Shown here piece after piece: positions 1 through 20,913 of a stretch of DNA of 32,000 nucleotides. The position numbers and the translations under genes are program-made. How positions within the stretch are numbered: the stretch's first letter is position 1; each line of letters opens with the position of its first letter. Origin of the DNA: an uncultured bacterium (GTDB lineage Bacteria > Margulisbacteria > WOR-1 > CAVSGV01). Location: contig OY969425.1 of NCBI GenBank assembly GCA_963699255.1, positions 60,001-92,000 on the forward strand. The letters run 5' to 3'. Under the pieces are notes generated by a model. That model made no database searches. It was not told where the DNA came from and saw nothing but the letters and a program-made list of their open reading frames with translations.

Positions 1-117
1 AAGCTGGTCAAAAAAGGCGTAATGATCGGAGAGGTTACGAGGGCAAGGAAGATCGTTCTAGTCGACGGCAAAGGCCGGGAGTCTCTCATGAAAGCAAAGG
101 GGTACGAGCACTTTTGA
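1..117 (+). CDS. 3' end of an upstream gene (last 38 codons), possibly a ThiL/AIR-synthase-like protein
   Basis: The frame is open from the window edge to TGA at 115-117. It translates as KLVKKGVMIGEVTRARKIVLVDGKGRESLMKAKGYEHF*. The G-Y-E-H-F ending recalls thiamine-monophosphate kinase C-termini, from memory only. Confidence 0.3.
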   Translation, partial: KLVKKGVMIGEVTRARKIVLVDGKGRESLMKAKGYEHF

Positions 118-140
118 AGGGGTGAGGTCGGAGGGTAATT

Positions 141-1256
141 TTGATAAATAAGAACAATTTGGTAAAGCGTTTCATTAAATACGTTAAGATCGACAGCCTG
201 TCGGGAAAAGAAGCCCGGTTCATGAAGCTTATCAGGAAACAGCTGTCGGATATGGGGATCAGGTCATATCAGGACAATGCCGGCCGCAAGATCGGGGGCG
301 ACTGCGGCAACCTTTACGCTTTCATTAAAGGCACGGTAAAGGGCGCGCCAAGGATACTTATTAACGCTCATGTTGACACGGTCATGCCGGGGGAGAACAT
401 CAGGCCGCGGATAAGGAAAGGGATCATCCGCAGCGACGGGAAAACTATATTAGGCGCGGATAACAAGGCCGGCGTCGCGGTGATAATGGAAGTTTTAAAA
501 ACGATCAGGTCAAATAAAGTGCCTCACGGGGACCTGGATATTCTGTTCACTGTTTCGGAAGAAACCGGTCTCATGGGCTCAAAATACGTGGACAGGAAAT
601 TCCTGAAGGCCGACTTCGGCTATGTCCTGGACGGCGGGGAAGTGGAGGAGATGATCAACAATGCCCCTTCGCAGGACTCGTTCGACATCACGATAACGGG
701 GCGCGCGGCGCATGCAGGGGTCCATCCGGAGCAGGGGATAAACGCGATCAAGGTCGCGTCCGCGGCGATATCAAAGATGAGACTCGGAAGGATCGACCAT
801 GAAACCACCGCCAATATCGGGATAATAAAAGGCGGCGTCGCGACGAATATCGTCCCTGAAACCGTTAATATTCTGGGAGAGGCGAGGAGCCGCGACATGA
901 AGAAACTGAGGCGGCAGGTGAAGCATATGGTAAGCGTCCTGCGCGAGGCGTGCTCTAAATTCAAGGCAAAACTGATATGCAAGGTCACGCCTTCTTACAG
1001 GGCGTTCAATATCCCAAAGACGCATAAGGCATTGGTCCTGGCGCAGAAAGCGGCAAAAAAGATCGGATTGAAACCGGTCGTTAAACCTACCGGCGGCGGA
1101 AGCGACGCGAATATTTTCTCTTCATTTGGACTGCCGTGCCTGATCCTGGGCGTCGGAGCGGACAGCGTCCACACAAAAAAAGAGAACATAGCCGTGGATG
1201 ACATGGCGGCCGGCGCGGACCTTCTTTTAAATATCATAAAGGAGAGCTTGGGATGA
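141..1256 (+). CDS. M20 family metallopeptidase (PepT/ArgE/DapE-like)
   Basis: 371-aa ORF with a TTG start and GGAGGG upstream. The motifs NAHVDTV, GADNKAG and SEETGLMG fit the M20 metal-ligand pattern. Confidence 0.8.
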   Translation: MINKNNLVKRFIKYVKIDSLSGKEARFMKLIRKQLSDMGIRSYQDNAGRKIGGDCGNLYAFIKGTVKGAPRILINAHVDTVMPGENIRPRIRKGIIRSDGKTILGADNKAGVAVIMEVLKTIRSNKVPHGDLDILFTVSEETGLMGSKYVDRKFLKADFGYVLDGGEVEEMINNAPSQDSFDITITGRAAHAGVHPEQGINAIKVASAAISKMRLGRIDHETTANIGIIKGGVATNIVPETVNILGEARSRDMKKLRRQVKHMVSVLREACSKFKAKLICKVTPSYRAFNIPKTHKALVLAQKAAKKIGLKPVVKPTGGGSDANIFSSFGLPCLILGVGADSVHTKKENIAVDDMAAGADLLLNIIKESLG

Positions 1257-1783
1257 TGGAGAAGACCCTGAAAACAAATAGGATATATAAAGGCAGGATC
1301 GTCGGATTGAGGGAGGACACTGTCAAACTAGTTAACGGAGTGGTGTCCAAAAGGGAGATAGTTGAGCATCCGGGCGCCGTCGCCGTTATCGCCGTTACAA
1401 AAGACGGCAGGATGGTCCTGATAAGGCAGTTCAGGAAACCCGCGGAGAAAGTTCTTCTTGAAATTCCCGCGGGGCTTGTGCACAAGGGAGAAAGCAATAT
1501 CAACGGCGCGCGAAGGGAGCTTACGGAAGAGACCGGATATGTGGCCGGCAGGATCAGGGAGATATTCAGCGGCTACTCGTCCCCTGGGTACAGCACGGAA
1601 GTGATAAAATTCTTCCTCGCGACCGACCTGAAGAAAGCGGAACAAAATTGCGATGCGGATGAAATGATCAGCGTTGAACTTTGTCCCGTGAAAAAAGCCC
1701 TGAAGATGCTGAGGCTGGGAAAGATAAGGGACAATAAAACAGCCGTCGGAATACTGCTAGCTAATATTTTATGGAAAAGATAA
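1253..1783 (+). CDS. Nudix hydrolase (ADP-ribose pyrophosphatase-like)
   Basis: The Nudix box GLVHKGESNINGARRELTEETGY is present. The start overlaps the upstream stop as ATGA. Confidence 0.85.
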   Translation: MMEKTLKTNRIYKGRIVGLREDTVKLVNGVVSKREIVEHPGAVAVIAVTKDGRMVLIRQFRKPAEKVLLEIPAGLVHKGESNINGARRELTEETGYVAGRIREIFSGYSSPGYSTEVIKFFLATDLKKAEQNCDADEMISVELCPVKKALKMLRLGKIRDNKTAVGILLANILWKR

Positions 1784-2631
1784 TAGAAGAATTTTTAAGC
1801 CACCTTAAGTATGAAAGGGGATACAGCGGGAACACCGTATCTGCTTATAAGAGGGACCTTGCTCATTTTGACAGGCATTTGAGGCAGCTGAATATCAGCT
1901 CTGTAAGCAGCATCACAAGGCCCGCGATAAGTTCGTTCGTCACGGCCCTTGTGGGGATGGGGCTTGAAGCTTCAAGCATAGAAAGGCATGTTGCGGCGGT
2001 AAAATCATTTTTTGCTTATCTGGTAAGGGAAGGCAAGGTCAAGATAAACCCCACTTCTGATATAAGGCTTCCGAGAAAGAGCAAGAAACTGCCGAAAGCC
2101 CTTTCAATGAACGAGGCGAAGAGCCTGGTGGAATGCCCCAGGTCAAAAAAGGACAGGGCGATAATGGAGCTTCTTTACGCGACGGGGATAAGGGCGACGG
2201 AGCTGGTCGGCCTCACGCTGAATGATGTCAATCTGGACGTCGGCTTTATCAAATGTTTCGGCAAGGGCGGGAAAGAACGGATCGTGCCGATGGGAGGATC
2301 CGCGATCTCCGCCATTAAAGAATACATCAAGTCGGACCGTCCAAAGTCCTCAAGCGATATTTTGTTCCTGGACAGGATGGGAAAGCAGCTTACCCGCCAG
2401 GGACTCTGGTTCATCGTCAAGAAATACGTTGAATTATCGGGGGTGAGGGCGAGCGCGTCTCCCCACACCCTGAGGCATTCTTTCGCCACGCACCTTTTGG
2501 AGGGCGGCGCGGACCTGCGCTGCGTCCAGGAGATGCTGGGCCACAGCGATATTTCCACCACCCAGGTGTATACTAGCGTAAGCAGGGAGCGGCTGAAAAA
2601 GATATATCACTCCGCTCATCCTAGGGCATAA
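1771..2631 (+). CDS. xerD: Tyrosine site-specific recombinase XerD
   Basis: The C-terminal catalytic region LRHSFATHLLEGGADLRCVQEMLGHSDISTTQVYT and the terminal HPRA are typical of XerD/XerC. The N-terminal SAM-like domain starts EEFLSHLKYERGYSGNTVSAYKRDL. Confidence 0.85.
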   Translation: MEKIIEEFLSHLKYERGYSGNTVSAYKRDLAHFDRHLRQLNISSVSSITRPAISSFVTALVGMGLEASSIERHVAAVKSFFAYLVREGKVKINPTSDIRLPRKSKKLPKALSMNEAKSLVECPRSKKDRAIMELLYATGIRATELVGLTLNDVNLDVGFIKCFGKGGKERIVPMGGSAISAIKEYIKSDRPKSSSDILFLDRMGKQLTRQGLWFIVKKYVELSGVRASASPHTLRHSFATHLLEGGADLRCVQEMLGHSDISTTQVYTSVSRERLKKIYHSAHPRA

Positions 2632-2845
2632 CGGGTAACCATGGAACCTGAGACTAAAAGTCTCGGTTCCAAATAGAGTATGAAAATTAACCGCGAATTT
2701 TATTCGCGGGATGTTAGTTAGCTCATCCTAGGGCATAACGGGTAACCATGGAACCTGAGACTAAAAGTCTCGGTTCCAAATAGAGTATGAAAATTAACCG
2801 CGAATTTTATTCGCGGGATTTTAGTTAACTCATCCGAGGGCATAA
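2614..2845. repeat. Tandem direct repeat with a 107-bp unit: two full copies plus an 18-nt third start
   Basis: Units 2614-2720 and 2721-2827 differ at one position (2713 g versus 2820 t). The segment 2828-2845 repeats only the first 18 nt with two changes. Each unit starts with GCTCATCCTAGGGCATAA, the last codons and stop of xerD. Each unit also carries two hairpins, at 2643-2670 and 2691-2709 in unit 1. Confidence 0.9.
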
Positions 2846-2848
2846 AAT

Positions 2849-3448
2849 ATGTTAGGCGCTTTGATACTTATTTTGATATTCCTTTTTGCCGTCACGATAC
2901 ACGAGGCCTCTCACGGATTCGTGGCTAACATGCTTGGGGATCCGACGCCGAAGCTTGCCGGCCGCCTGACCCTGAACCCTGTGGCGCATCTGGATCCCAT
3001 CGGGACGCTGCTGCCTCTTTTGCTGATATTTTCTGGGTCTCCAATGGTATTCGGCTGGGCGAAGCCGGTGCCGATAAACCCTTATAATTTCAAGGACCCA
3101 TCCCGTGGGGAAATGCTGGTTTCGTTCGCCGGGCCGTTCTCAAATTTCCTTGCCGCATGGATAGTTGCGATGCTGATAAGGTTCATCCCCGCACATATAA
3201 TGATGACCGGTATTACAGTTTCCGTTATACGCAGCTTTATTCTGGTCAATCTTACCCTGGCGGTCTTTAATCTTATTCCTATCCCGCCTTTGGACGGTTC
3301 GCACATACTTGAGCCGTTCATTCCGTACGAGTTCAGGCGGATGTTCGAGCAATACGGCTTCTTCATATTGATATTCATACTTATTTTCCCGCCAACGGCG
3401 GACCTGTTGTTCTACATAATAAACTTCCTGTTCGGGCTGATGACCTAA
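2849..3448 (+). CDS. Site-2 protease family (peptidase M50) membrane protein
   Basis: It has the HExxH motif IHEASHG and the NLIPIPPLDGSH motif, and is multi-pass hydrophobic. A GAGGG SD lies 8 nt upstream. Confidence 0.8.
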   Translation: MLGALILILIFLFAVTIHEASHGFVANMLGDPTPKLAGRLTLNPVAHLDPIGTLLPLLLIFSGSPMVFGWAKPVPINPYNFKDPSRGEMLVSFAGPFSNFLAAWIVAMLIRFIPAHIMMTGITVSVIRSFILVNLTLAVFNLIPIPPLDGSHILEPFIPYEFRRMFEQYGFFILIFILIFPPTADLLFYIINFLFGLMT

Positions 3449-3449
3449 A

Positions 3450-4631
3450 ATGAACTATCGCCGCGCGGTCGCCTATCTGGAGAGCTTTCAGAAAATGGGC
3501 ATAAGGCTTGGGCTTGAAAGGATCCGCACCCTGCTTTCGCATCTCGGAGCCCCCCAGGATGCTTACAAGATGATCCACATTGCCGGAACGAACGGAAAAG
3601 GTTCCATTGCCGCCATGCTTTCATCGATACTTAAACAGGCCGGATATAATGTAGGGCTTTACACTTCGCCGCATCTCGTCGATTACACCGAGAGGATAAG
3701 GATAAATGAGAAGGACGTCTCGAGGGAAAAATTCGCCGCGGCCGTTGAGGCGGTTAAAAAGGTCATCAACAAGCTGCCGGAGATGGACCTTACGGAATTC
3801 GAGGTCCTGACCGCCGCATCGTTCTTGTTGTTATCCCGTGAAAAAGTTGAGATAGTCATCGTTGAGACCGGGCTTGGCGGCAGTCTTGACGCGACGAACG
3901 TAATAACCCCCATATTATCGATCATCACTAATATCGATTATGACCACATGGATGTTCTGGGCGGCACTATAAGCAAGATAGCAAAGGAAAAGGGCGGGAT
4001 CATAAAGAACCATGTCCCGCTTGTCACCGGCGAAAAAAAAGTGTGGCGGATCCTGCATAGTATATGTAAGGAAAAGAGATGCAGGTTCATCAGGTCCGTC
4101 AGGGAAAAGGTTAAATATGTCCCGTTACTGGGGAGCCATCAGGCGGAGAACACGAAGGTTGTGCTTGCCAGCGTACGGGTTTTAAGGGGTTTGGGGCTCA
4201 ATATCAGCGATAAGCAGGTGGACAGAGGGCTTCGGCGCACTTTCTGGCCAGGAAGGCTTCAGGTCGTCTCAAAAAGTCCTCTGACTATCCTTGACGGGGC
4301 GCATAATCCCGCGGGAGCGAAAGCTCTGGTTGAATATCTGTCAGGATTGAAGAAGAAGTTCACTTTTGTTATCGGGATGCAGAGGAACAAGGATATTGAT
4401 AGTGTTATCAAAATATTGATGCCTGTCGCGGACAGGTTCATTGTTGTAAAGTCGAGCAATCCGAATGCCGTGTCGAAAGATGTCCTTGCGAAGAAGATAG
4501 AGAGGGCAGGGGGGCTGGCGGTGATCGCGAAGGATCTGAAGGGGGCACTTTCGATGGCGAAAAAGACAGGGAATCCCGTCTGTGTCGCCGGCTCGCTTTA
4601 TTTAATAGGAGATGCGTTAAAGAAGTTTTAA
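3450..4631 (+). CDS. folC: Bifunctional folylpolyglutamate synthase / dihydrofolate synthase
   Basis: The Mur-ligase ATP motif HIAGTNGKGS is present, along with YTSPHL, ETGLGG and DGAHNPAG. The length of 393 aa fits. Confidence 0.85.
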   Translation: MNYRRAVAYLESFQKMGIRLGLERIRTLLSHLGAPQDAYKMIHIAGTNGKGSIAAMLSSILKQAGYNVGLYTSPHLVDYTERIRINEKDVSREKFAAAVEAVKKVINKLPEMDLTEFEVLTAASFLLLSREKVEIVIVETGLGGSLDATNVITPILSIITNIDYDHMDVLGGTISKIAKEKGGIIKNHVPLVTGEKKVWRILHSICKEKRCRFIRSVREKVKYVPLLGSHQAENTKVVLASVRVLRGLGLNISDKQVDRGLRRTFWPGRLQVVSKSPLTILDGAHNPAGAKALVEYLSGLKKKFTFVIGMQRNKDIDSVIKILMPVADRFIVVKSSNPNAVSKDVLAKKIERAGGLAVIAKDLKGALSMAKKTGNPVCVAGSLYLIGDALKKF

Positions 4632-4673
4632 TTTGAGAAGGATTTAAAAGGTCCTTATTTAAGGAGTTGTCGG

Positions 4674-4793
4674 ATGATGCTCGTTGCAATGGCATTTACT
4701 CTAATTCATAGGCACAGTCTGGGTAAAGAGAGTTTGAGAAGGCGAAGGAATGGAATATTAGGATTCCGAACGAAAAAGAGTATAATGAGTTGA
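4674..4793 (+). CDS. Candidate small ORF of 39 aa with a hydrophobic N-terminus and basic tail
   Basis: AAGGAG lies 7 nt upstream of ATG 4674. The translation is MMLVAMAFTLIHRHSLGKESLRRRRNGILGFRTKKSIMS*. It was not in the ORF track because it is under 60 aa. No homology evidence is available. Confidence 0.25.
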   Translation: MMLVAMAFTLIHRHSLGKESLRRRRNGILGFRTKKSIMS

Positions 4794-4870
4794 AATATCT
4801 TATTTTGTTAGGTGTACTAATGTGATTAGCGGAAATGAATCAACTAAAAAACGACTATTGGAGGTAAATC

Positions 4871-6412
4871 ATGGATGTAACAGATGAAGTGTCTTTTTGG
4901 TCCAGATTAGGATTTAAGGCGAACCCTTTCCAATATACAAATGCTGACCAGGAAGATGAATTGCATAAATATTTTGTGCCGCCTCAATATTTTCCGTCTG
5001 TATGGGGTGACCCTCAAAAACCCCAGTCTTGTGTGGTGTTTGCACCACGTGGTGGAGGCAAATCTGCACAAAGAAGAATGATCGAAAATCAAAGTATTGG
5101 GAGTAAAGTCCTTGCACTTCAGTACACAAGGTTTGAATTTAGACCGGGTATGCGCATATCGGACATAGATATTGAATATCATCTCAAAAACATTATTCGA
5201 ATATGTTTAATCGGATTTCTTATGCAAACATATGAGAATAAAATTGGGCATATGGTTTTCAATGCAACTGAAAAGAGGCAAGTTAAGGATCTATGTAATT
5301 TTTATTTACATGATATGAATACTGAAGCGGTTTCCGCAGCTGTAAATGCGATAATGAGTCCAGCCGAAAAAGCAAAAAAATTGTTTTATGAGAACTCATG
5401 GGTTATCGGACCAATTATTCAGATTTTAGCAAAAACGTATATAGGGATAGACTTATTCCCTTTAACACTTCAAGCTGATGATACATCAATAAGAAATGTA
5501 TCAAAGACGCACTTAGAGAACATATTATTACTAATTAAAAAGCTTGGTTATGATTCAGTATATGTATTAATTGATAAAGTCGATGAAACAAGCTTAACAA
5601 GTAATAATGCACAAGCTTCCTTTGATTTGATTGCTCCAATGCTTAAGGATTTAGAATTACTACAAATGGGTAATATTGCCTTCAAATTCTTTTTGTGGGA
5701 TGAAATCACTCCTTCATTTATTAAATATGCACGGCCTGACAGAATTACGGCATTTAATATGACATGGTTAGAAGCAGACTTAAAAAATATGATGACTCGG
5801 AGGCTGTGTGCTTATAGCAATAATGGTAAGCGCAATTTCGGAAATCTATTTGATGCTAAGATAGCCCCCATAGATGTCCTTGAAGAATTGCTTTCTATTT
5901 TCTCCCAGAATTCCCCAAGAGATATGATTCGGATATGCAGGCAAATGGCTGCTGAACAATTAAAAATTAACCCATCAGATAGCCATATAGGCATGACTGC
6001 TGCTACTGAAGGGATAAACAGATTTTGTCTTGACCGCGCGCGCGAAGTTGTTTCCACGAAGATTCTTGAAGAGCTTCAGAAAACTCACCGATTAGATTTC
6101 ACTGTAAATTATGTTGCAAATGATATTTTTAAAATAGACCAAAATGCTGCAAGGGCAAAAATTACCTCAAGTTGGGTGGTAACTGGTATTATAAGGCGCA
6201 TTGATGATACCCATATTAAGGGAGTAAAAAAACCAGCGCATCATTTTGCGGTTATGGATTCTAGGATTGCCAGATCAATATTCCCTGAACTAAACTTTCT
6301 GGATTTCTTAGAGAATAAAGTTCGTGAATGTAAATGCGGGGAATTTGTTCTTAGAGATTGGGATATTTCAAGCAATCAGATATGTCAAAAGTGCAAAACG
6401 CAAATGAAATAA
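4871..6412 (+). CDS. Orphan P-loop NTPase (AAA+/STAND-like) with a C-terminal zinc ribbon
   Basis: GGAGG SD is present. Walker A is APRGGGKS at nt 5042-5065. A Walker-B-like VYVLIDKVDE lies at about nt 5558-5587. The N-terminal LGFKANPF..A..E lead-in is common in AAA_22/ExeA-like and ORC-like ATPases, and SPRDMIRICRQ looks like a sensor/lid motif. The C-terminus has CKC-x17-CQKC at nt 6329-6394. The gene is clearly more AT-rich than its neighbours. Confidence 0.7.
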   Translation: MDVTDEVSFWSRLGFKANPFQYTNADQEDELHKYFVPPQYFPSVWGDPQKPQSCVVFAPRGGGKSAQRRMIENQSIGSKVLALQYTRFEFRPGMRISDIDIEYHLKNIIRICLIGFLMQTYENKIGHMVFNATEKRQVKDLCNFYLHDMNTEAVSAAVNAIMSPAEKAKKLFYENSWVIGPIIQILAKTYIGIDLFPLTLQADDTSIRNVSKTHLENILLLIKKLGYDSVYVLIDKVDETSLTSNNAQASFDLIAPMLKDLELLQMGNIAFKFFLWDEITPSFIKYARPDRITAFNMTWLEADLKNMMTRRLCAYSNNGKRNFGNLFDAKIAPIDVLEELLSIFSQNSPRDMIRICRQMAAEQLKINPSDSHIGMTAATEGINRFCLDRAREVVSTKILEELQKTHRLDFTVNYVANDIFKIDQNAARAKITSSWVVTGIIRRIDDTHIKGVKKPAHHFAVMDSRIARSIFPELNFLDFLENKVRECKCGEFVLRDWDISSNQICQKCKTQMK

Positions 6413-6419
6413 TGGACAG

Positions 6420-6440
6420 GTGATTATCTATGCTAATCAC
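6420..6440 (+). terminator. Weak hairpin terminator candidate after the NTPase gene
   Basis: GTGATTA-tctatgc-TAATCAC is followed by TCTTCTTCTTC. The stem is AT-rich, so this is a weak call. Confidence 0.3.
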
Positions 6441-6502
6441 TCTTCTTCTTCAGGAGTGCTAGGGAGGCAGGCTAAGAATCCTTAAATATGCTCTCTAACT
6501 TG

Positions 6503-7063
6503 CTATTTCTTGATATTTATTGCCACTGACCGGCTGAACCAGATCTTAGGTTCTTCAAGAACATTAAACCCAAGGCTTTTTATCGTTTCTATCGACTTGC
6601 TAAAGTCTTTCTTTGAAACATGGAACTTCGGCTCAACTATTAGGACTTTCCCGTCCGGCTTCAATAACGTCTTTATTTCCTTCAACAACGCCAGCTGGTC
6701 GGGGATCTCGTGAAGGACATAAAATATCAAAATAAAGTCGAACTTTTCCGTTAAGCCTAACTTGTCCTTCGGGGTTATATATAGCTCTATGTTCTTAAGG
6801 CCCGAACGCTCGATCTTTTTCTTCAGTATCTCCAGCATCCCATCCTGCAGATCAGCCGCAACCACCTTGCCGGAAGCTCCCACCATCTTCGCCATATCCA
6901 TGGTGAAAAATCCCGGGCCGCAGCCAAGATCAAGCACCGTCATCCCTTCATTAATATATGGCTTTAATATCCGCTTCGGATCATGGGCCCGCCTGCGTAT
7001 CCCCATATCCAATATGCCCGAGAGTATTACCGGGCAGATTTTGTAGTTTATATCTAATTTCAT
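6503..7063 (-). CDS. Class I SAM-dependent methyltransferase
   Basis: SAM-binding motif I VLDLGCGPGFF is present, followed by VVAADL and the post-I/II pattern FDFILIFYVLHEI. Length is 186 aa with a TAG stop. Confidence 0.8.
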   Translation of the reverse strand: MKLDINYKICPVILSGILDMGIRRRAHDPKRILKPYINEGMTVLDLGCGPGFFTMDMAKMVGASGKVVAADLQDGMLEILKKKIERSGLKNIELYITPKDKLGLTEKFDFILIFYVLHEIPDQLALLKEIKTLLKPDGKVLIVEPKFHVSKKDFSKSIETIKSLGFNVLEEPKIWFSRSVAINIKK

Positions 7064-7083
7064 TTTTCCTTCCCGCTTTCTTT

Positions 7084-7112
7084 ATTATATTTATCGTTCA
7101 TCAGCTTGTCTA
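7084..7112 (-). promoter_or_regulatory. Sigma70-like promoter for the methyltransferase gene
   Basis: The minus strand reads TAGACA-N17-TATAAT. The -10 lies about 20 nt upstream of the GGAAGGA SD and ATG. Confidence 0.45.
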
Positions 7113-7254
7113 TATTTCATTTGTTGAACTATTTTTCAGGTGAGAGTTAACATGGTGGAAGCTAATTTGGGCTTATCGGCAAGATCAAAACGCGTTTCTG
7201 CGCTTTAGATATACTATGGCATAGTAATAAGCCAATCAGAAACGCTTGACCTTC

Positions 7255-7302
7255 TTTCTTTGTTACTTTCTTTGTGTCAAGACAAAGAAAGTAAGAAAGA
7301 AA
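7255..7302. repeat. Imperfect 21-bp AT-rich inverted repeat (TTTCTTTnTTACTTTCTTTGT / ACAAAGAAAGTAAGAAAGAAA)
   Basis: Hand pairing of 7255-7275 with 7282-7302 gives 13 bp, one mismatch, then 7 bp, with a 6-nt loop. The right arm is the start motif of the repeated element. Confidence 0.7.
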
Positions 7303-7565
7303 TGCCTTTGTGTTGTTTAGACAAAAAATGATCTTAAATGATCGAGACGAGGGGCTCTGCCCTTACGTAGAAAGTATAGTGGTTCCATTAAGATATCTCT
7401 CTCATCCCGCCCATTTTCTTTCTGCTCCTTCCTTGACTTGCCTACTCCCCCGACACAAGGTCGAGGTCGTACGGCTCAAACAGAAGGCCTAACAATGAAA
7501 CCCCCTCTGTATCTCCCCCTTACTAAGGGGGAGAAGTCTTGCGCGCAAGCGTGAGACAGAGGGGG
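7284..7565 (+). repeat. Repeated structured non-coding element, copy 1 (possible ncRNA or relic of a mobile cassette)
   Basis: 7346-7425 matches 9605-9684 at 77/80. 7431-7550 aligns to 9745-9864 without a net indel. It contains nested hairpins: P1 pairs 7501-7509 with 7557-7565, and an inner TCTCCCCCT-tacta-AGGGGGAGA sits at about 7513-7535. No convincing ORF is present. Confidence 0.75.
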
Positions 7566-7583
7566 TGCAGACTTATTAAGAGG

Positions 7584-7612
7584 TTGACAATGGGATTTTT
7601 GGCTATTAGTAT
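7584..7612 (+). promoter_or_regulatory. Sigma70-like promoter upstream of the DUF5678-like/retropepsin pair
   Basis: TTGACA (7584-7589), N17, TAGTAT (7607-7612). A perfect palindrome GGGTTAACCC at 7635-7644 lies between this promoter and the AGAGGAGA SD. Confidence 0.4.
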
Positions 7613-7723
7613 GACTGCATCGGTCTCGCAAGAGGGGTTAACCCGTTATTCTTTAAGCCATAAATACTGAAATTTATCGCGTAATTTAATGATATATATG
7701 ATGAGAAGAGGAGAATTGATCCG

Positions 7724-7912
7724 ATGGACAACACATTGGTAAAAGATGAAAAATACGGCGGCCGGTTCGTGGCTCTGAAGAGCTTTGACGACAAAACAAT
7801 ACTTGTTGACGGGAAAGATCCGAAAGAAACCCTTGAAAAAGCAGCTCAAAAAGGGTTTAAAAATCCTGTAATATTCTATGTGCCGATAAAAGATATGGTT
7901 CAGATCTACTGA
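7724..7912 (+). CDS. Small DUF5678-like protein (62 aa)
   Basis: EKYGGRFVALKSFDDKTILVDGKDPKETLEKAAQKGFKNPVIFYVP matches my recollection of the DUF5678 pattern (Y.GKWVA...G.VV..G....E..EKA...G..nP.i..VP). The SD is good. The next ATG is 3 nt after its stop. Confidence 0.6.
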   Translation: MDNTLVKDEKYGGRFVALKSFDDKTILVDGKDPKETLEKAAQKGFKNPVIFYVPIKDMVQIY

Positions 7913-7915
7913 CAG

Positions 7916-8320
7916 ATGGGACTTCAGAACAAACCTTTTATTCAGATCGGCTCGGGAAATACTCCAAAACCCTAGCTTCCTATCGTTATAATAAATCCTC
8001 ATACCAAGAAAAGCGTTTCCACTTATGGACTTGTTGACACGGGTGCGGATGAATGCGCCTTGCCCGCTAGTTTTGCCGAAATACTTGGCCATAACCTGCA
8101 ACAAGGAAGCCCCAAGGAAATATCCACGGGGAATGGCATTACGATCGCATATTCGCATACTGTTTCAATTGAAACGGATGGCTTTCATACGGAGGATGTG
8201 TTGATCGATTTTATGCCCAATTTAAGCATTCCATTGTTGGGCGTGAGAAGCTTTTTGAGTAAATTTATTCTAACGATTAACTATAAAGAGCGAACTTTTT
8301 CTCTGCAGCCAAACAACTGA
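7916..8320 (+). CDS. Retropepsin-like aspartic protease with its frame interrupted by an in-frame TAG at 7973-7975 (pseudogene or readthrough)
   Basis: Reading from ATG 7916 gives MGLQNKPFIQIGSGNTPKP*LPIVIINPHTKKSVSTYGLVDTGADECALPASFAEILGH... The catalytic D-T-G-A at 8036-8047 lies upstream of the ORF-track start at 8060. No ATG, GTG or TTG exists between the TAG and the DTG motif. Confidence 0.6.
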
Positions 8321-9398
8321 TAAACTCCGCTTTCAGCCGGGTTTCGGCCCATTCGCCCTCCGCAGTGGAATCCCAGATTATCCCGCCGCCTATTCCCATC
8401 TCGCAACTTTTACCTCGTACAAGTATAGTCCTGATGGGAACATTGAAATACATCCCGCCATCGGGAGATATGTACCCGATCGCCCCCGTGTAAACATTCC
8501 TTTCTTCCTTTTCGATCTCCCTGATGATCTCCATCGCGCGTATCTTCGGCGCGCCGGTGACCGACCCGGAAGGGAAAAGCGCGGACATCAGTCTTGAGAG
8601 CTTGATATCAGGCGGGACTTTAGCGGTGACCGTGGATGTCATCTGGAACAGAGTTTTATATGCCGTTACCTTGAACAGGTCCCGCCACGCGATATTTCTG
8701 CCTATCCTTCCCAGGTCATTCCGCAAAAGATCCGCTATCATTATGTTCTCAGCCCTGTTCTTTCCATCATGGAAGAACCTGCGCTTCTCGATAACATCGG
8801 ATATCGCATTTTTCCCCCTGCGCCACGTGCCTTTCATCGGCTCAGTTAGAATATGCCCGCAGTTTTTCTTTATAAAACGCTCCGGGGAAAGCGACAGGAC
8901 CTGGAATCCTCCCGCGTCGATGTAAGCGGGATAGGGGACAGGCTGGCGGCGTAAAAGCTCTTTGTACAGCGCGTACGGGTCGCCCTGAAGATCGAATTTA
9001 TATTTTACGCAGTATGTTATCTGATAAACATCGCCGTTCGATATGTGCCGGCGGATGAGTCCGATATTGCGGGAGTAATCTTCAAATGAAATATCCGGCC
9101 TTAGATCTTTGATGCCGAAGGTCCCGGGTTTCCTCGATGTTGACTCCTGGCCACAAGCATTTTTATAAACGCCGAAAATAAGAAGTGGGAGATCAGAAGG
9201 GATCGCTGTGTATAATTTTTCTTCAAGGCAATAGCCGGCTTCGTATGAAATGTATCCCGCCAGCCAGTATCCGGCGGCGGAAAGATCCTCCAGCTCCTTC
9301 AGCGCGGAATGAAAATGCTGCGGATCATAACAGGCCACGATCTTTTCCGGATCGCGGAAAAAAAGCGGTTTGTTCTCAAAACTGGCCTGGACTTCCAT
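8277..9398 (-). CDS. pabB: Aminodeoxychorismate synthase component I / chorismate-binding enzyme (PabB-like, short form)
   Basis: Chorismate-binding motifs PSGSVTGAPK and GAIGY are present, along with GIGGGI near the C-terminus. An AAGGAG SD is present. Length is 373 aa. An anthranilate synthase TrpE-type assignment cannot be excluded by eye. Confidence 0.75.
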   Translation of the reverse strand: MEVQASFENKPLFFRDPEKIVACYDPQHFHSALKELEDLSAAGYWLAGYISYEAGYCLEEKLYTAIPSDLPLLIFGVYKNACGQESTSRKPGTFGIKDLRPDISFEDYSRNIGLIRRHISNGDVYQITYCVKYKFDLQGDPYALYKELLRRQPVPYPAYIDAGGFQVLSLSPERFIKKNCGHILTEPMKGTWRRGKNAISDVIEKRRFFHDGKNRAENIMIADLLRNDLGRIGRNIAWRDLFKVTAYKTLFQMTSTVTAKVPPDIKLSRLMSALFPSGSVTGAPKIRAMEIIREIEKEERNVYTGAIGYISPDGGMYFNVPIRTILVRGKSCEMGIGGGIIWDSTAEGEWAETRLKAEFISCLAAEKKFALYS

Positions 9399-9404
9399 GG
9401 ACTT

Positions 9405-9441
9405 ACTCCTTTAAGCCTGGGTGTCCCGGTTAAAGAGGAGT
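9405..9441 (-). promoter_or_regulatory. SD-sequestering hairpin in the pabB leader
   Basis: The minus strand reads ACTCCT-ct-TTAA-ccgggacacccaggc-TTAA-AGGAGT, then aagtcc, then ATG. The 3' arm is the SD of pabB. Confidence 0.4.
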
Positions 9442-9462
9442 GAAGTTCATGGCCCGGACATG

Positions 9463-9471
9463 ATTATATCA
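9463..9471 (-). promoter_or_regulatory. Extended -10 (TGATATAAT) promoter element for pabB
   Basis: The minus strand reads GTGATATAATCATG about 60 nt upstream of the pabB ATG. The -35 is weak. Confidence 0.35.
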
Positions 9472-9540
9472 CTTATAATTCCGGATGTAATTTCTTACCT
9501 TGTGAGCAACTGCTCGAAGCCGCGAGCCTGAAGGAATGTA

Positions 9541-9864
9541 AAAGAAAGTGGAAAGGAAATACCTTTTATGTAAAACAATGCAAAATGAAAACTAAAGTTA
9601 TCGTGACGATGGGCTCTGCCCTTGCGTGGAAAGTATAGTGGTTCCATTAAGATATCTCTCTCATCCCGCCCATTTTCTTTCTGCAGCGAAAGAAAATGGG
9701 GGAAAAGAACGCCGACAGGGGACAAGCCCCCTGTACCCCCACGGCCTTGACTCGCCTTCTCGTCCTCACCAAGCTCGGCCTCGTACGGCTCAGACAGAAG
9801 GCCTAATAATGAAACCCCCTCTGTATCTCCCCCTTACAAAGGGGGAGAAGTTTCGAACGCAAGC
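9541..9864 (+). repeat. Repeated structured non-coding element, copy 2
   Basis: It is homologous to 7284-7550. It carries an extra 60 nt (9685-9744) that completes a perfect 13-bp hairpin at 9669-9700 and adds a 7-bp hairpin at 9715-9734. It lacks the 3' strand of P1 that copy 1 has. Confidence 0.75.
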
Positions 9865-9865
9865 A

Positions 9866-9944
9866 AAAGAAAGTAAGAAGGAAAGGTATTATGTTTTTTT
9901 GAGTTAGAAACATGGAGCGAACTTTTTCTCTACAGCCAAGCAAC
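9866..9944 (+). repeat. Third partial start motif of the element, plus a 30-nt relic of the retropepsin 3' end
   Basis: 9866-9900 (AAAGAAAGTAAGAAGGAAAGG...) resembles 7284-7320. 9915-9944 matches 8288-8317 at 28/30. Confidence 0.7.
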
Positions 9945-9988
9945 ACTAGCCCAATTCTAAGATTATGAAGGCTAGGTGGCCATGATGA

Positions 9989-10837
9989 TTACGAGCATAT
10001 ATAATTAATGATATGCTCCTCTAGGGTCCTTCCGATTTGATATGCGTCATTTCTTTCGATCACTTTTTTCAGAGCTTTTTCATCAAGGCATATTTCATCC
10101 ACGGCTTCAGACGCTGCCATAGCATCATTTTCCACAAGATATTTATAGAAGCTGAACGCCTTTTCAACGCCCAGTGACCGCACTACGGACCTGACGACCG
10201 CCTCGTCATCCTCCGGCAATTTGATCTGAAAAAGGTAGGGCTTGATGAAGAAGCCGGAAAGATCTTCAAGCCCCAGCTCTTTTACCGCTTTCATGATCAC
10301 AAGGTCTCCAAGCTTTACAAGCGATGCCGGGAGCGATGAGCCATATTTCCTGCTGTAATCCAATATGTTCGAGATCATCGGCGCGTCTTCTTTTATAAGC
10401 CATTCCATCCCTGTAAGCGCGTGCCTGAACGTTCTTCTGTCCGTGCCGGCCAGTGTGCCCAGGAAATCGATCGCTCCATCACTGTTATATCTGTAATAGG
10501 CGTGCCACATGCTCTTTGCGCGGTCCGCGCCGAACTCTTCAAATAAAGCGGCCGCTTTCTCCCTGTCCATGGAATGCAACAGCCGGCATTCTCTCGTGTC
10601 AAATGTATATCCTATCGTCAATTTGGGAAGCGTTTCGTTCAAGAATTTCTTTGCCTTATAATATCCGCGCGTTTCCAGGTCGCTTACGATAAAACTTTCT
10701 GTGCCGCAAAAAGGGAGCGACCTTTTTAATCCCCAGAACACCTTATCCGCTTTTCGCGCCCGCATCTTCACGAACCTGCGGACCCCCGCGGCTTTAAGAT
10801 TTGCCTTTATAATGGCGTTAAAAGATAACTCACTCAT
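9989..10837 (-). CDS. Hypothetical protein (282 aa)
   Basis: The ORF is long with an AAGGGGA SD. I recognise no motif. Confidence 0.6.
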   Translation of the reverse strand: MSELSFNAIIKANLKAAGVRRFVKMRARKADKVFWGLKRSLPFCGTESFIVSDLETRGYYKAKKFLNETLPKLTIGYTFDTRECRLLHSMDREKAAALFEEFGADRAKSMWHAYYRYNSDGAIDFLGTLAGTDRRTFRHALTGMEWLIKEDAPMISNILDYSRKYGSSLPASLVKLGDLVIMKAVKELGLEDLSGFFIKPYLFQIKLPEDDEAVVRSVVRSLGVEKAFSFYKYLVENDAMAASEAVDEICLDEKALKKVIERNDAYQIGRTLEEHIINYICS

Positions 10838-10970
10838 CGTTTTTCCCCTTATTCAATGCTTGATCGAGCCGTATATATCTCGTTAAATTCCCCGAAAAAT
10901 CCCAGTATTTTTATAAAATTCTCATGACCCGGAGGCTGGCGGCAGTGGATAAGGGAGCAGGCAAAAGCGG

Positions 10971-11627
10971 TCAGTTCTGCAGGACTATCGCGGATCCGTC
11001 ATGATCGCCGGTGGTCAGCGTTTCGCTTGTGATCATATTGTCCAGAAAGACCTTGCGGGTCATCTTGAGCTCCGTTTTGCTTGTTATCCGGGCGGCGAAT
11101 TCTTCGCGGGCCTTCACGAACGACACATAATCATGCCCGCGCCGGTCCAGCTTCTCCCTGCTGAATGCGCCGGTAAAATAGAACTTCCCTTCGCTCTTAT
11201 ACGGCCCGAAGATCCTCCCGTGGTCGTTCTTGAATTCGGGAGGCCTGTCGGAGAAAGCATAGCGGTTTTTCCTCGGGATCTGCGGGTACAGCGATGTCCC
11301 GATGTATCCCGAATAACCCGATGAATGCCCCCTTCGGGGCTTGAAACCGGCTTCCGCGCAGTACTTGGATATCCTGCCTATGGCTTCTTCAGAGGTCTTT
11401 GACCTGCTGTCTATGATCACCACGTTTATCGGCTCCTTTATTTCTTTTCCATGGAATTTCAGCCCCAGCCAGTTCGCGGGCTTGTTAGAAGGCGTTATCA
11501 TCCATTTGCCGATGACCGGAAGCCCTTTGGGATGCGCCAGGTCGGAAGATGCGGGCTGGTACGCTGCGCCTGCAGCGTAAAAAGCCAGCGCGGCCAGGAA
11601 AATGATCACGATCGATCTCTTTCGCAT
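10971..11627 (-). CDS. Secreted hypothetical protein, possibly an LssY C-terminal-like domain
   Basis: The N-terminal signal peptide is MRKRSIVIIFLAALAFYAAGA. The pattern PINVVIID...AEAGFKP...YAFSDRP...NDHGRIFGP resembles my recollection of LssY_C proteins. Confidence 0.55.
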   Translation of the reverse strand: MRKRSIVIIFLAALAFYAAGAAYQPASSDLAHPKGLPVIGKWMITPSNKPANWLGLKFHGKEIKEPINVVIIDSRSKTSEEAIGRISKYCAEAGFKPRRGHSSGYSGYIGTSLYPQIPRKNRYAFSDRPPEFKNDHGRIFGPYKSEGKFYFTGAFSREKLDRRGHDYVSFVKAREEFAARITSKTELKMTRKVFLDNMITSETLTTGDHDGSAIVLQN

Positions 11628-11780
11628 CTTAACCTCTGCCCTCCGATCCTTCCTGATACATCCCCATCAACACGAGGCACGACCAAATTTATTATAACAC
11701 TTTTTGGCCATGTGAACAGTTCACGGCCCAAGTTATCCGTACACAGAGTGAAATTTCCATGAAGATATGACGACAAATAT

Positions 11781-12290
11781 ATGAGCGAGGAGCTGATTAA
11801 TATGGGGATACCTATAACATATATAAGAATAAGGACCGGGACAGGCGAGATCGTAGGGGGGACCAAGAGGAACGTTATTGACAGGCATGCCTTTAGCGCC
11901 CTGACCCCGGATATTTTGCGAAACATTAAATGTCTCCCGGGTAATATTCAGGATAAGCTGAAAATAATAAATCCGCTGGTCCGGATGCCGAAAGCGCCGT
12001 TACAATTCGCGTTACGGAAGATCGATCTTGATACACCGGTGACCTGCAGCGATTTTACGAAAAAATATGCTCCTAAACGTTTTGAGGAAGCGATAGCTTT
12101 TTTTAAAGAGTGTCTAAAGACATCGGACGCAAAGATAGGAGCAGCTTTGGGTGTTGAGGCGGATCCTTACGGGAGGACATGGCCGGGAGCCCATCTACAG
12201 CTGAACTTTCACACGTGGATCAAAGGGTCAATGGACCTGTCTAAAGATGTGATACACATCGATCTGTACAATATGTATTCACTGGCGTGA
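11781..12290 (+). CDS. Hypothetical protein (169 aa)
   Basis: The ORF is divergent from the 10971-11627 gene. The SD is weak and no motif is recognised. Confidence 0.45.
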   Translation: MSEELINMGIPITYIRIRTGTGEIVGGTKRNVIDRHAFSALTPDILRNIKCLPGNIQDKLKIINPLVRMPKAPLQFALRKIDLDTPVTCSDFTKKYAPKRFEEAIAFFKECLKTSDAKIGAALGVEADPYGRTWPGAHLQLNFHTWIKGSMDLSKDVIHIDLYNMYSLA

Positions 12291-12395
12291 TAGATAACTT
12301 GACCCGCCCCCGCGACCCTAGCCACTATTGATTTCTTTTCTTCGGGATAGGTGTATAATAAAATACAGCGATCAGGGATCCGGAGGAGGATAATC

Positions 12396-13511
12396 ATGAA
12401 TAAGCATCTGTTGGCTGTTTCCGTCACTCTATTGTGCCTCGCGTCTCTCGCCTTAACATTTACTATTTCCGGCTGCGGTTCCAACGCCACGGGAGGCGGC
12501 GGCAGCGGCGGAGGAGCCAGTGTCACAGCTACAGGAGAGGTATATATCACCGATTTTTTGAATAAAAGGGTTCTTGTCCTCTTGTCCAGCGGCGAGTCAT
12601 TCATTCAAGTGGCCACAATAGAACTGACCGGCGCATCAACTCCAAAATGGATGGCCATGAACCCGAGCGGCACAAAGCTGTATGTCGCGGATGAAGGAGC
12701 CAATAAAGTATTTGTGATAAATACAATAGGGAATACTGTTGAAGCTTCAGTTCCTGTATGTAGCACACCGAGAGGCATGGCTTTTAATGCTGACGCGAGC
12801 AAGCTCTTTGTCGCAACACCCGGCGATTGGGATATAGACATCATAGATACATCAAATAATACAAAAAGTGGTCCTATTTCGGTTGGCTCTATCTTCTCAT
12901 CAGATTTTTCCGATATAGCTTATGGCGGCGGTTATGATCAACTCTACGTTGCGGAAACAGGCCTGAATTCTGTTGAAGTTGTGGATACCCCCGGAGGTGC
13001 CGCCGTGATAGCCGGCTATATTCCCGTTCCTGCGCCGTATGAGATAATTAGTCACGATACCAGTACAGTCTACGGGATTGCGTATACGACATCACATGAT
13101 TCGGCCGCTCCATATCTAAGCGAAGTATATACGACCACTAAAAAGATCGTGCACACATGGGAATCTTCGGCGTCCTCAGCAACCCCCACTGCTTATCACG
13201 GGTTCCGCAGCCTGGTCTTTTCACCGGATAACAAGAAACTCTACGCGGCTGACCATGATTTCAGCTATATTGACAGTATGGGTATAACAACTTTCGAAAC
13301 TATGAAACCGATAAATTATATTTCCGGAGCGGCTGGTTCGGTCCCAGCTCCCGAACAGATCGCCGTATATCCGGACGGGAAGTACCTGGCAGTATTGAAC
13401 AGTTACGACACGAAAGAAGTCGTTTTACTGGATACCGTCCATAAAAAGAGGGTTGGGTCTTATGCGCTTCCATATACCGCTTCTTATTTCGGGATAGTGT
13501 ATAAGCCATAA
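12396..13511 (+). CDS. YVTN-type beta-propeller repeat lipoprotein
   Basis: I prefer ATG 12396 because GGAGGAGGA lies 6 nt upstream. The lipobox LTFTISGC is followed by a G/S linker. Repeated motifs such as P..MA.NP.G.KLYVA......V.VI are present. Confidence 0.7.
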   Translation: MNKHLLAVSVTLLCLASLALTFTISGCGSNATGGGGSGGGASVTATGEVYITDFLNKRVLVLLSSGESFIQVATIELTGASTPKWMAMNPSGTKLYVADEGANKVFVINTIGNTVEASVPVCSTPRGMAFNADASKLFVATPGDWDIDIIDTSNNTKSGPISVGSIFSSDFSDIAYGGGYDQLYVAETGLNSVEVVDTPGGAAVIAGYIPVPAPYEIISHDTSTVYGIAYTTSHDSAAPYLSEVYTTTKKIVHTWESSASSATPTAYHGFRSLVFSPDNKKLYAADHDFSYIDSMGITTFETMKPINYISGAAGSVPAPEQIAVYPDGKYLAVLNSYDTKEVVLLDTVHKKRVGSYALPYTASYFGIVYKP

Positions 13512-13525
13512 CAGAACGGGATAAG

Positions 13526-14254
13526 ATGGTTGATGTCTCCGTAGTTATACCTGTCCGCAATGAAGCGGGGACACTGAATGGCCTTCACTCCAGACTCAAA
13601 AAAGAGCTGGAAGCCCTCCGGAAAACATACGAGATCATCTATGTGAATGATTGCTCCGCTGACGATTCTGCGAATATACTCCATGCCATTCAGATGAAAA
13701 ACGAACATGTGAAGGTTGTCAATTTCGACAGGCATTACGGTCAGGCAAATGCCCTGCAGGCGGGATTCGATATCGCGCAGGGAAATATCATAGTTACTCT
13801 TGATGCTGATATGGAGAACGACCCCCTCGACATCGAACAGCTCGTCAACAGATTGAACGACGGCTATGACGCGGTGTGCGGAAGGCGCGTCGGGCGGCCC
13901 GTAAATTTAAAACTTCTTCTTTCCTGCTTGGGCAACTTTGTGTTCCGGCTCTTCTTTAGGACGCCCGTAAGCGACCTGGCATGCACCTTAAGGGCATACA
14001 AAAAGGAAGCAATAAAAGGCCTTGTCATAACCGGGACCCTCCACAGATATCTGCCCGCGCTTCTTTATATGAGAGGAGCGAAAGTGGCCCAGATAGAAGT
14101 GAGATACAAGATGAGAAGATACGGGAAAACAAAGTATAATGATTTTTCAAGGGCTATAAGCACCCTGAAAGACCTTTTTTGGATGATATTCGACCGGAAC
14201 AGGATATTGAACAATAAGATAAGAGGATATAAGATCCGGGAAATATGGCAGTGA
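13526..14254 (+). CDS. Family 2 glycosyltransferase (polyprenol-phosphate sugar transferase-like)
   Basis: VSVVIPVRNE...IIYVNDCSAD and the TLDADMEND (DxD) motifs are present, with a C-terminal amphipathic or TM region. Confidence 0.8.
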   Translation: MVDVSVVIPVRNEAGTLNGLHSRLKKELEALRKTYEIIYVNDCSADDSANILHAIQMKNEHVKVVNFDRHYGQANALQAGFDIAQGNIIVTLDADMENDPLDIEQLVNRLNDGYDAVCGRRVGRPVNLKLLLSCLGNFVFRLFFRTPVSDLACTLRAYKKEAIKGLVITGTLHRYLPALLYMRGAKVAQIEVRYKMRRYGKTKYNDFSRAISTLKDLFWMIFDRNRILNNKIRGYKIREIWQ

Positions 14255-16534: not shown

Positions 16535-16629
16535 AGCAATGATCCAATGAACAATGACACAATGACCAATTAATGTGTCATTTATAATATACCCTTCCTT
16601 AATTGTTCATTGTATAATTGTGTGATTGT
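16530..16629. repeat. Intergenic inverted array A: about 6x AATGA (7-8 nt period) facing 4x ATTGT (7-8 nt period)
   Basis: AATGA-type words start at 16530, 16538, 16546, 16553, 16561 and 16568/72. ATTGT words start at 16602, 16609, 16617 and 16625. It shares exact cores with 20813-20828 and 20902-20913. Confidence 0.8.
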
Positions 16630-20848: not shown

Positions 20849-20913
20849 TAATATGTTGCCGAAGGCAACACGACGTTGTTAATTATTAATTGAGAAATTG
20901 TTAATTGTGTGAT
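20802..20913. repeat. Intergenic inverted array B: AAT(T/G)A words (7-8 nt period) facing ATT(G/A)T words
   Basis: Forward words start at 20802, 20809, 20816 and 20824. Inverted words start at 20882, 20889, 20897 and 20904. The left arm encodes the last residues of PBP2 (KLTINNDTMNNKEYI). Confidence 0.75.
20854..20870 (+). terminator. Hairpin after mrdA (terminator candidate)
   Basis: TGTTGCC-gaa-GGCAACA is followed by only a moderately T-rich tract. Confidence 0.3.

Follow-up and report, generated by a model that had tools for sequence, protein, structure and literature searches.

The 32,000-nt window analysed here, the whole stretch from position 60,001 to 92,000 of contig OY969425.1 from an uncultured bacterium, carries a non-coding element, E, in two copies, E1 and E2 (Table 1). 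The copies are direct repeats in the same orientation. E1 lies in front of a small cassette that consists of a promoter-like site, a DUF5678 gene and a retropepsin-like gene, and E2 lies between pabB and a gene for a 282-aa protein on the opposite strand. An original prediction, made from the letters of the window, had described a structured non-coding element repeated on either side of the cassette and pabB in two exceptionally long intergenic regions; the presence of two copies was confirmed, as were the gap lengths of 660 and 590 nt.

Table 1. Positions in the window of E, its repeats and stems, and the neighbouring genes and boundaries.
Feature	Position	Strand	Remark
E1, copy 1	7284-7565	+	55-nt two-hairpin module missing; 3' three-way module complete
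E2, copy 2	9541-9865	+	keeps the 13-bp and 7-bp hairpins; 3' end truncated
E3, stub of a third copy	9866-9911	+	first 20-25 nt clearly element 5' end; remainder loosely similar
Second copy of the last retropepsin codons	9912-9944	+	remnant of a second cassette, ~950 nt deleted
Inverted copy of the first 21 nt of E1	7255-7275		forms a 20/21-bp palindrome with 7282-7302, 6-nt spacer
Longest identical run, 56 nt	7370-7425 = 9629-9684		not conserved in E-like relatives
10-bp hairpin CTCCCCCTT/AAGGGGGAG with flanks, E1	7512-7521/7525-7534		loop ACT
Same 10-bp hairpin CTCCCCCTT/AAGGGGGAG, E2	9826-9835/9839-9848		loop ACA
Outer stem, E1	7501-7509/7557-7565		9/9 pairs
CTTGCGCGCAAG palindrome, E1	7538-7549		inside the 3' module
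3' module, E1	7501-7565		10-bp CTCCCCCTT hairpin and CTTGCGCGCAAG inside the 9-bp outer stem
S1, perfect 13-bp hairpin	9669-9681/9688-9700		6-nt loop TGCAGC
S2, perfect 7-bp hairpin	9715-9721/9728-9734		E2 copy
S3, GGGC-TCT-GCCC mini-hairpin	9611-9621; 7352-7362 in E1		both copies
Cassette proper	7583-8316	+	promoter-like site, DUF5678, retropepsin-like gene
DUF5678	7724-7912	+	intact
Retropepsin-like gene	7916-8320	+	in-frame TAG at 7973-7975
Promoter-like site, methyltransferase	7112-7084	-	consensus scan
Promoter-like site, DUF5678	7584-7612	+	consensus scan
Promoter-like site, pabB	9491-9463	-	consensus scan
XerD	1771-2631	+	329.8 bits against the XerD cut-off of 329.6
FolC-type ligase	3450-4631	+	
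513-aa P-loop protein	4871-6412	+	NCBIfam NF053860 'anti-phage protein' (DS41_1), 394 bits, cut-off 370
Methyltransferase	6503-7063	-	
pabB	8277-9398	-	373 aa
282-aa gene	9989-10837	-	
Variable low-GC island, folC to pabB	4632-8316		anti-phage ATPase (NF053860), methyltransferase, E1, cassette
Insertion block, ~495 nt	9474-9968		absent from L007 and L008

We measured the similarity of E1 and E2 by BLAST within the window, which returned two blocks (E = 2e-36 and 4e-33). The first block, 7346-7425 against 9605-9684, was identical at 77 of 80 positions. The second, 7431-7550 against 9745-9864, was identical at 101 of 120 positions without a gap, with a diverged first part (33/45) followed by a nearly identical remainder (68/75), as had been predicted. 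The 5' 62 nt of the copies were similar at only 34 of 62 positions in an ungapped comparison, in agreement with the loose resemblance noted earlier, and 55 extra nt in E2 between its two matching blocks amount to a single 55-nt indel relative to E1. Beyond E1, E2 and the stub E3, BLAST detected no further copy of E in the window.

The copies have lost different parts. The 55-nt module that is missing from E1 contains half of the 13-bp hairpin S1 and the whole of the 7-bp hairpin S2, such that only the left arm of S1 survives there; this surviving arm had been predicted, at a position one base off (7409-7421 rather than 7410-7422). In E2 the outer stem has no 3' partner, since E3 begins at 9866, and CCCCCTCTG at 9815-9823 is consequently unpaired. 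Since each copy lacks a part that the other keeps, it is reasonable to propose a longer ancestor of ~340-355 nt, as the original prediction had suggested from the different damage to the two copies. Logan contig L001 breaks inside both copies of E, and two copies are enough to explain the breaks.

We also observed shorter repeats around the copies. E3 abuts E2, and its first 20 nt (9866-9885, AAAGAAAGTAAGAAGGAAAG) are 88% identical to 7278-7302. About 27 nt after the start region of E3, the last 30 nt of the retropepsin-like gene are duplicated (8288-8317 and 9915-9944, 93% identity). The succession of a stub of E and a second retropepsin tail indicates that the repeated unit was once E followed by the promoter, DUF5678 and the retropepsin-like gene; one nearly whole unit, which carries a nonsense codon, and one gutted unit are now present. 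The purine-run motif AAAGAAAGT was found 26 times in the window with one mismatch allowed, as compared to 11.3 +/- 3.6 expected, and clusters, in both orientations, along the arms of the 13-bp hairpin and at the 5' ends of the element. A tandem array would be expected to leave a degenerate 'E0' ahead of E1 or E2; this was rejected because the local alignments scored lower than shuffled controls.

Apart from the half-hairpin of E1, all of the stems listed in the original prediction were found where it had placed them (Table 1). Folding was better than that of shuffled sequence, but on both strands alike: RNA z scores were -8.2 (plus strand) and -6.1 (minus strand) for 7250-7570, which includes E1 and the upstream 21-bp inverted repeat, and -3.5 and -3.6 for the E2 region (9535-9890), and DNA z scores were -6.9 and -6.3 for the 3' module (7495-7570). 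The major stems together contain 69 Watson-Crick pairs, no G-T or G-U pair and one mismatch. Stems built in this way would fit DNA palindromes or very young hairpins better than they fit typical structured RNA. A consensus fold of the two sequences with RNAalifold predicted a 5-bp helix that joins the ends of the element (UAAGA/UCUUG in E1, UGGAA/UUUCG in E2).

E is non-coding, as predicted. The 55-nt indel between the copies shifts every reading frame, none of seven stop-free frames matched a Pfam family, and a word-indexed search with a six-frame pseudo-protein yielded no match among 5.8 billion proteins. Consistent with the earlier failure to place E in an RNA family, none of the 4227 models of Rfam 15 matched anywhere in the window at gathering thresholds, and matches at E <= 10 over 7050-10000 were microRNA-hairpin noise on the 7255-7302 palindrome. 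ARAGORN called no tRNA or tmRNA gene in the window.

We scanned for promoters and terminators by consensus, such that the calls are sequence matches and not evidence of function. The promoter-like sites of the methyltransferase, pabB and DUF5678 all sit between E and the respective gene, indicating that E is in none of those leaders; for none of these three flanking genes does E occupy the position of a riboswitch or 5' leader, between promoter and start codon. A minus-strand riboswitch for pabB or for the UbiE-like methyltransferase was rejected on the basis of the intervening promoter-like sites and the short pabB leader of relatives. No promoter- or terminator-like site brackets E on either strand, and no intrinsic terminator was called on either strand of E1 or E2, the 3' module being followed on the minus strand only by TTTCATTGTT or TTTCATTATT.

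We searched for relatives of E outside the window, with different outcomes for nucleotide and translated queries. IMG/VR, GTDB genomes and JGI metagenomes contained no exact match to the 20-mer TGGTTCCATTAAGATATCTC; a viral scan with an alignment of the relatives described below had no match; and 9474-9970 had no blastn match in phage and plasmid collections. An exhaustive HMMER search of 1.84 billion representatives with the 112-codon stop-free minus-strand frame of E2 (9498-9833) matched six open reading frames (ORFs) of 44-81 aa (E = 4e-10 to 8e-4, 54-67% identity), which with the cluster mates P0253 and P0254 make eight sequences in six clusters. The ORFs, P0246-P0251 with P0253 and P0254, derive from JGI/IMG, ENA and an NCBI metagenome-assembled genome, on contigs of up to 22.8 kb. 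They start at different points and are frameshifted relative to one another, and P0248 switches midway to another frame of E2, indicating that the matched ORFs are translations of E-like non-coding elements and not a protein family. Hence, the public 'hypothetical proteins' P0246-P0254 (for example, MFH1710581.1) are probably spurious ORFs across such elements, and the matches show that E belongs to a small family with members in several metagenomes.

The translated relatives are conserved over the hairpins of E. Three stretches stand out: G[VI]LFPHFL.L.KENGRD at S1, QGLAPAG at S2 and RKG.A.RHD at S3. The arms of S1 are conserved, as PHFL and KENG when the minus frame is translated, whereas the loops of the hairpins encode residues that vary. 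After back-translation into degenerate DNA, all S1 pairs remained compatible in seven of the ORFs, P0248 being the one left aside; the S2 position could still form a hairpin, and the S3 stem was compatible with a varying loop. At S2, P0249 and P0254 would carry another stem of 8 bp, CCNAARGG/CCNYTNGG, in which five Watson-Crick pairs are fully determined. These back-translated patterns, the apparently replaced stem included, are the only real hint of conservation at the level of structure, and fit RNA or single-stranded DNA equally. The original prediction was to fail if no further copies existed and the stems showed no covariation; the relatives, and the hairpin that seems from back-translation to have been replaced, argue against both.

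By contrast with the hairpins, the translation of the 56-nt block is not conserved (ERDILMEPLYF as compared to GRRELIKSTRY). Since the block varies among relatives, its identity in E1 and E2 is best read, most simply, as the result of recent gene conversion between the copies and not of constraint. P0248 agrees with E2 across the stretch in which E1 and E2 diverge most, and is closer there to E2 than E1 is, indicating that E1 and E2 belong to different sublineages of the family.

We compared the cassette with relatives at other loci: five with a retropepsin protein (P0121) at 89% amino-acid identity (L010-L014), three with DUF5678 at 90% identity or more (L017-L019), two at 77-79% (L015 and L016), and an IMG/VR contig at 50% (L009). 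Nucleotide homology to L010-L014 and L017-L019 extends at 80-83% identity from 7583, at the -35 box, to 8304-8318, and nothing upstream of 7583 is common to the cassette relatives. BLAST and nhmmer found E in none of 19 loci. The shared DNA thus begins only at 7583, indicating that E is not part of the cassette and that here, in both units, it merely stands in front of it. The possibility that E is the cassette's own leader, or the end of a mobile unit, was rejected because eight cassette relatives lack E. The retropepsin-like gene of the window has TAG where its close relative L019 has TGG (Trp), and is therefore a nonsense pseudogene.

The cassette relatives have repeats and neighbours of their own, and repeats unrelated to E occupy its place there. 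In L010 (JGI 3300035701, 1-11819), small genes are densely arrayed with repeated non-coding modules between them, and two intergenic modules occur in five copies each within 12 kb. The first module, TCCCACCCATTGCAACAC..., directly follows genes in L010 and recurs upstream of the cassette in L017. The second, TTCCTTGCCCC...GGGCGTATAAT...AAGGCGGTGAGAATATG, resembles a promoter and ribosome-binding site. L010 also contains GGGNTAAGG G-tract runs paired with C-rich inverted copies, and inverted G-rich and C-rich runs recur in L019. The repeats of L010 look like those of a cassette array, or like a system of intergenic repeats that extends over the genome. On the 27.8-kb viral contig L009 (2989-4698 of UViG 3300017593_001354), DUF5678 and retropepsin genes lie directly upstream of the gene for a tyrosine integrase of 362 aa, and in L015 the pair lies beside HEPN/nucleotidyltransferase and AAA_14/DUF4143 genes. 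The two-gene module was found across Omnitrophota, Margulisiibacteriota, Saganbacteria, Nitrospirota and Elusimicrobiota, and behaves like a mobile toxin-antitoxin-like or defence cassette.

We also compared the surroundings of each copy of E with two syntenic relatives, L008 and L007, the latter a 12.9-kb JGI contig with ~84% nucleotide identity across the genes it shares with the window. In either relative, ~68 nt separate pabB from the homologue of the 282-aa gene, and the alignment to the window stops at 9473 and restarts at ~9969. E2 thus sits in an insertion of ~495 nt. Unrelated sequence accounts for 67 nt of this insertion; the rest is E2, E3, the remnant of the retropepsin tail and a further 24 nt. 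The folC-pabB interval, which contains E1, is occupied in L007 by entirely different genes, with a SEC-C-domain protein and an ORF6N protein at the position of the 513-aa protein. The latter has an ORC-CDC6-like N-terminus according to Pfam, and its match to NF053860 is at the equivalog level. GC content is 31-40% over 4600-6600 as compared to ~50% elsewhere. E1 thus lies in a variable anti-phage island, and E2 in a small insertion separate from it.

The right edge of the island lies inside the 3' end of pabB. Homology to L007 and L008 resumes at 8317, the exact end of the retropepsin-tail repeat, such that the edge is at 8316/8317. The pabB proteins of relatives are 363-364 aa as compared to 373 aa here, and the last ~10-14 codons of pabB are the antisense of the retropepsin tail (8277-8320), in a convergent overlap of 44 nt. 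These data indicate that insertion of the island replaced the native stop codon of pabB, creating the overlap and adding ~10 foreign codons. The best named pabB homologues are from Candidatus Omnitrophota, and E is not at the pabB loci of the more distant relatives L002-L005, which share ruvB-pabB-lapA-hisB synteny.

We tentatively favour a reading in which E, a member of a small, uncharacterised family of modular non-coding sequences, is a DNA repeat based on hairpins that is non-autonomous, travels with mobile island DNA and is not a core chromosomal gene. The presence or absence of whole hairpins between copies supports modularity, and the retropepsin nonsense codon supports decay. Under this reading, E would act at the DNA level through extruded or single-stranded hairpins, and might be recognised in trans by an enzyme encoded elsewhere, as are the IS200/IS605-derived PATEs, REP/BOX-type repeats and further elements that depend on hairpins; alternatively, E might simply be carried along and reshuffled by recombination at the short AAAGAAAGT repeats. 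Gene conversion would let copies exchange sequence, slippage would remove whole hairpin modules, and recombination points would lie in purine-run repeats and microhomologies, such as CAAGC in the 3' region of E and CAAGAC to the left of E1, which match the E2/E3 junction. The arrangement around pabB would then be a by-product of insertion, local duplication and deletion, either through two insertions or through a tandem duplication of pabB and the unit followed by two deletions. Hence, the flanking arrangement that was originally predicted is real, but a functional link of E to pabB or to the cassette is not supported; rather than a functional bracket, we see insertion and rearrangement of island DNA.

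Several observations weigh against a mobile DNA repeat. Only two copies and a stub were seen, within a 32-kb window of the 1.77-Mb source genome, and multi-copy status is unproven. Six degenerate 24-nt patterns found no copy in GTDB genomes, JGI metagenomes or IMG/VR, indicating that the family is rare; the blocks used for the patterns turned out not to be conserved in the family. Comparison with L007 and L008 revealed no target-site duplication or terminal inverted repeat at 9474/9968, and the inserted block holds more than E, such that mobility of E itself is not demonstrated. There is no transposase, HUH enzyme or integrase near E, the only recombinase of the window being the chromosomal XerD. 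Lastly, hairpins kept in position with varying loops and one apparently replaced stem are also expected of a structured RNA, and the helix that joins the two ends of E remains paired although E1 and E2 differ there by two double changes; as compensatory changes drawn from two sequences, these are suggestive.

The same observations bear on a second reading, in which E is a new structured RNA of ~340 nt on mobile islands, either a gene or a cis-acting part, with multiple hairpins closed by the 5'-3' helix. We consider this somewhat unlikely, yet a serious rival, because hairpin positions are kept while loops vary; an RNA of regulatory or guide type that serves a protein encoded by the island would be one example. 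The strong predicted folding (z = -3.5 to -8.2) is in its favour, as are the S1, S2 and S3 positions that can still form in relatives while their loops change, the different complementary pair at S2 in two relatives with its five determined Watson-Crick pairs, the two compensatory changes in the closing helix, and the position of E just upstream of the cassette promoter in both units. However, E is not linked to the cassette elsewhere, neither copy is intact, such that at most a damaged RNA would be made here, no Rfam model matched even at E = 10, and the two sequences and back-translated ORFs on which covariation is based are too few for statistics. The RNA status implied by the original prediction is not upheld for further reasons: no promoter- or terminator-like site brackets E on either strand, both strands fold equally well, there is no G-U pair among ~70 stem pairs, and the 56-nt block, which looks constrained when E1 and E2 are compared, is not conserved in relatives. 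An extension of both readings, that E and its relatives form a new class of ~340-nt structured nucleic-acid element on mobile defence islands, strikes us as improbable; the class could comprise RNAs, of a guide or bridge type for a recombinase encoded elsewhere, or self-folding single-stranded DNA substrates with hairpins, rather than sequence, under selection.

It is unlikely that E is neutral filler with no function of its own, part of a foreign fragment now in decay after local duplication around pabB. The damage to both copies, the retropepsin pseudogene, the loss of nearly all of the second cassette and the overwritten end of pabB would all be accounted for, and a tandem duplication of pabB and the unit with two deletions gives the observed order. 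However, the hairpin positions recur in E-like sequences that persist in several other metagenomes, and simple recent duplication in situ does not explain two copies that belong to different sublineages.

An att- or dif-like recombination region, with the 13-6-13 palindrome as a tyrosine-recombinase core and the AAAGAAAGT repeats as arm-type or accessory sites, is very doubtful: the geometry of the inverted repeat with its 6-nt spacer at 9669-9700, the purine motif in both orientations, the location of E at or in insertion and island boundaries, and the tyrosine integrase that adjoins a related cassette on L009 would suit it, but the island has no integrase or excisionase, XerD is a conserved chromosomal gene, similarity of E1 and E2 resumes after the 55-nt gap, which makes the half-site of E1 an internal deletion and not a crossover junction, the island edge at 8316/8317 is not at the TGCAGC spacer, the 20/30 match between the retropepsin tail and S1 follows from the coding sequence (FSLQP), which L019 also has, and L009 contains no E-like sequence. 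A dif/Xer-like interpretation of the TGCAGC palindrome together with the retropepsin tail was rejected on the same grounds, the likeness of the tail being coding and the junctions lying off the spacer.

Among known systems, a mobile hairpin repeat of the kind we favour is closest to the IS200/IS605-derived PATEs and to elements like the miniature inverted-repeat transposable elements (MITEs), which, like E, are ~300 nt long, non-coding, hairpin-rich and intergenic, have no transposase of their own, are present or absent between relatives and leave no target-site duplication. Of the subterminal hairpins expected at both ends of a PATE, E has a strong one near its 3' end (7512-7534 and 9826-9848) and only weak pairing near the 5' end. 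E has no terminal inverted repeats and no defined target motif, and the E2 insertion holds other sequence too; the window encodes no TnpA or TnpB. As for a classical MITE, the 5' end of E (AAAGAAAGT...) has no inverted counterpart at the 3' end, its sole inverted copy being 7255-7275, and no flank is duplicated at 9474-9968 relative to the empty sites in L007 and L008.

E also resembles the BOX/RUP repeats of Streptococcus, ERIC, REP/BIME and Correia elements, in which hairpin modules are present or absent, location is intergenic, folding is possible on either strand, and distribution is restricted to lineages. Families of that kind are recognised from tens to hundreds of copies in each genome, whereas two to three copies of E are visible in the window, and E shares no sequence similarity with them. 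Integron attC sites are likewise folded-hairpin DNA beside small mobile cassettes, with structure kept over sequence, and the L010 array is comparable in this respect. Their length is 57-141 nt, they carry R''/R' core sites (RYYYAAC/GTTRRRY), and an integron integrase should be found close by. By contrast, E spans 280-350 nt (282-325 nt in the copies as they stand), we found no such cores at 7284, 7565, 9541 or 9865, and no integron integrase is nearby: XerD, the sole tyrosine recombinase of the window, is far below the cut-off of the integron-integrase model. Lastly, HEARO/IscB omega-RNA, ROOL, GOLLD and OLE are, like E, several hundred nucleotides long, multi-hairpin and often on mobile DNA. 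Large structured RNAs of this type were not known until alignments were made. E differs from them in having no match among the 4227 Rfam models, no associated protein gene and no defined transcript. By analogy, E would work most like the modular hairpin repeats (PATE/MITE, REP, BOX), and it is best filed as an unclassified member of the broad kind of intergenic hairpin repeat on mobile DNA. The family is undescribed, and nothing yet separates E from many lineage-specific repeats of uncultivated phyla.

Three further differences and repeats were observed elsewhere in the window. Genes for an NHL-repeat protein, a glycosyltransferase and a membrane protein at 12351-15696 have no counterpart in L007 and form a second indel between the genomes. 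A 107-nt unit that begins with the last 17 nt of xerD (CTCATCCTAGGGCATAA) is tandemly duplicated at 99% identity within 2614-2850 (2614-2720 and 2721-2827), with a third, partial start at 2828; each unit contains the hairpin GGAACCTGAGAC...GTCTCGGTTCC and a terminator-like CCGCGAAT...ATTCGCGG, and L007 lacks the ~200 extra nt of this xerD-tail repeat. Finally, the intergenic stretches 16545-16626 and 20808-20913 share CAATGAACAATGACACAATGACCAA (92%) and a second block of 28 nt (75%), upstream of mreB (16648) and of an L25/Ctc-like gene (20973), respectively, and the shared sequence may be a regulatory motif.

For annotation, E accounts for the unusual length of two intergenic gaps and for a point at which the assembly breaks, and it flags the 'hypothetical proteins' P0246-P0254 as probable translations of a non-coding element. 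Should E prove to be an RNA, it would represent a new structured RNA class linked to island DNA. To our knowledge, almost no mobile DNA or non-coding RNA has been described in Candidatus Omnitrophota; if the family is real and mobile, E would add an unclassified non-autonomous element to this group, and would show repeats remodelling a defence island and overwriting the end of the housekeeping gene pabB.

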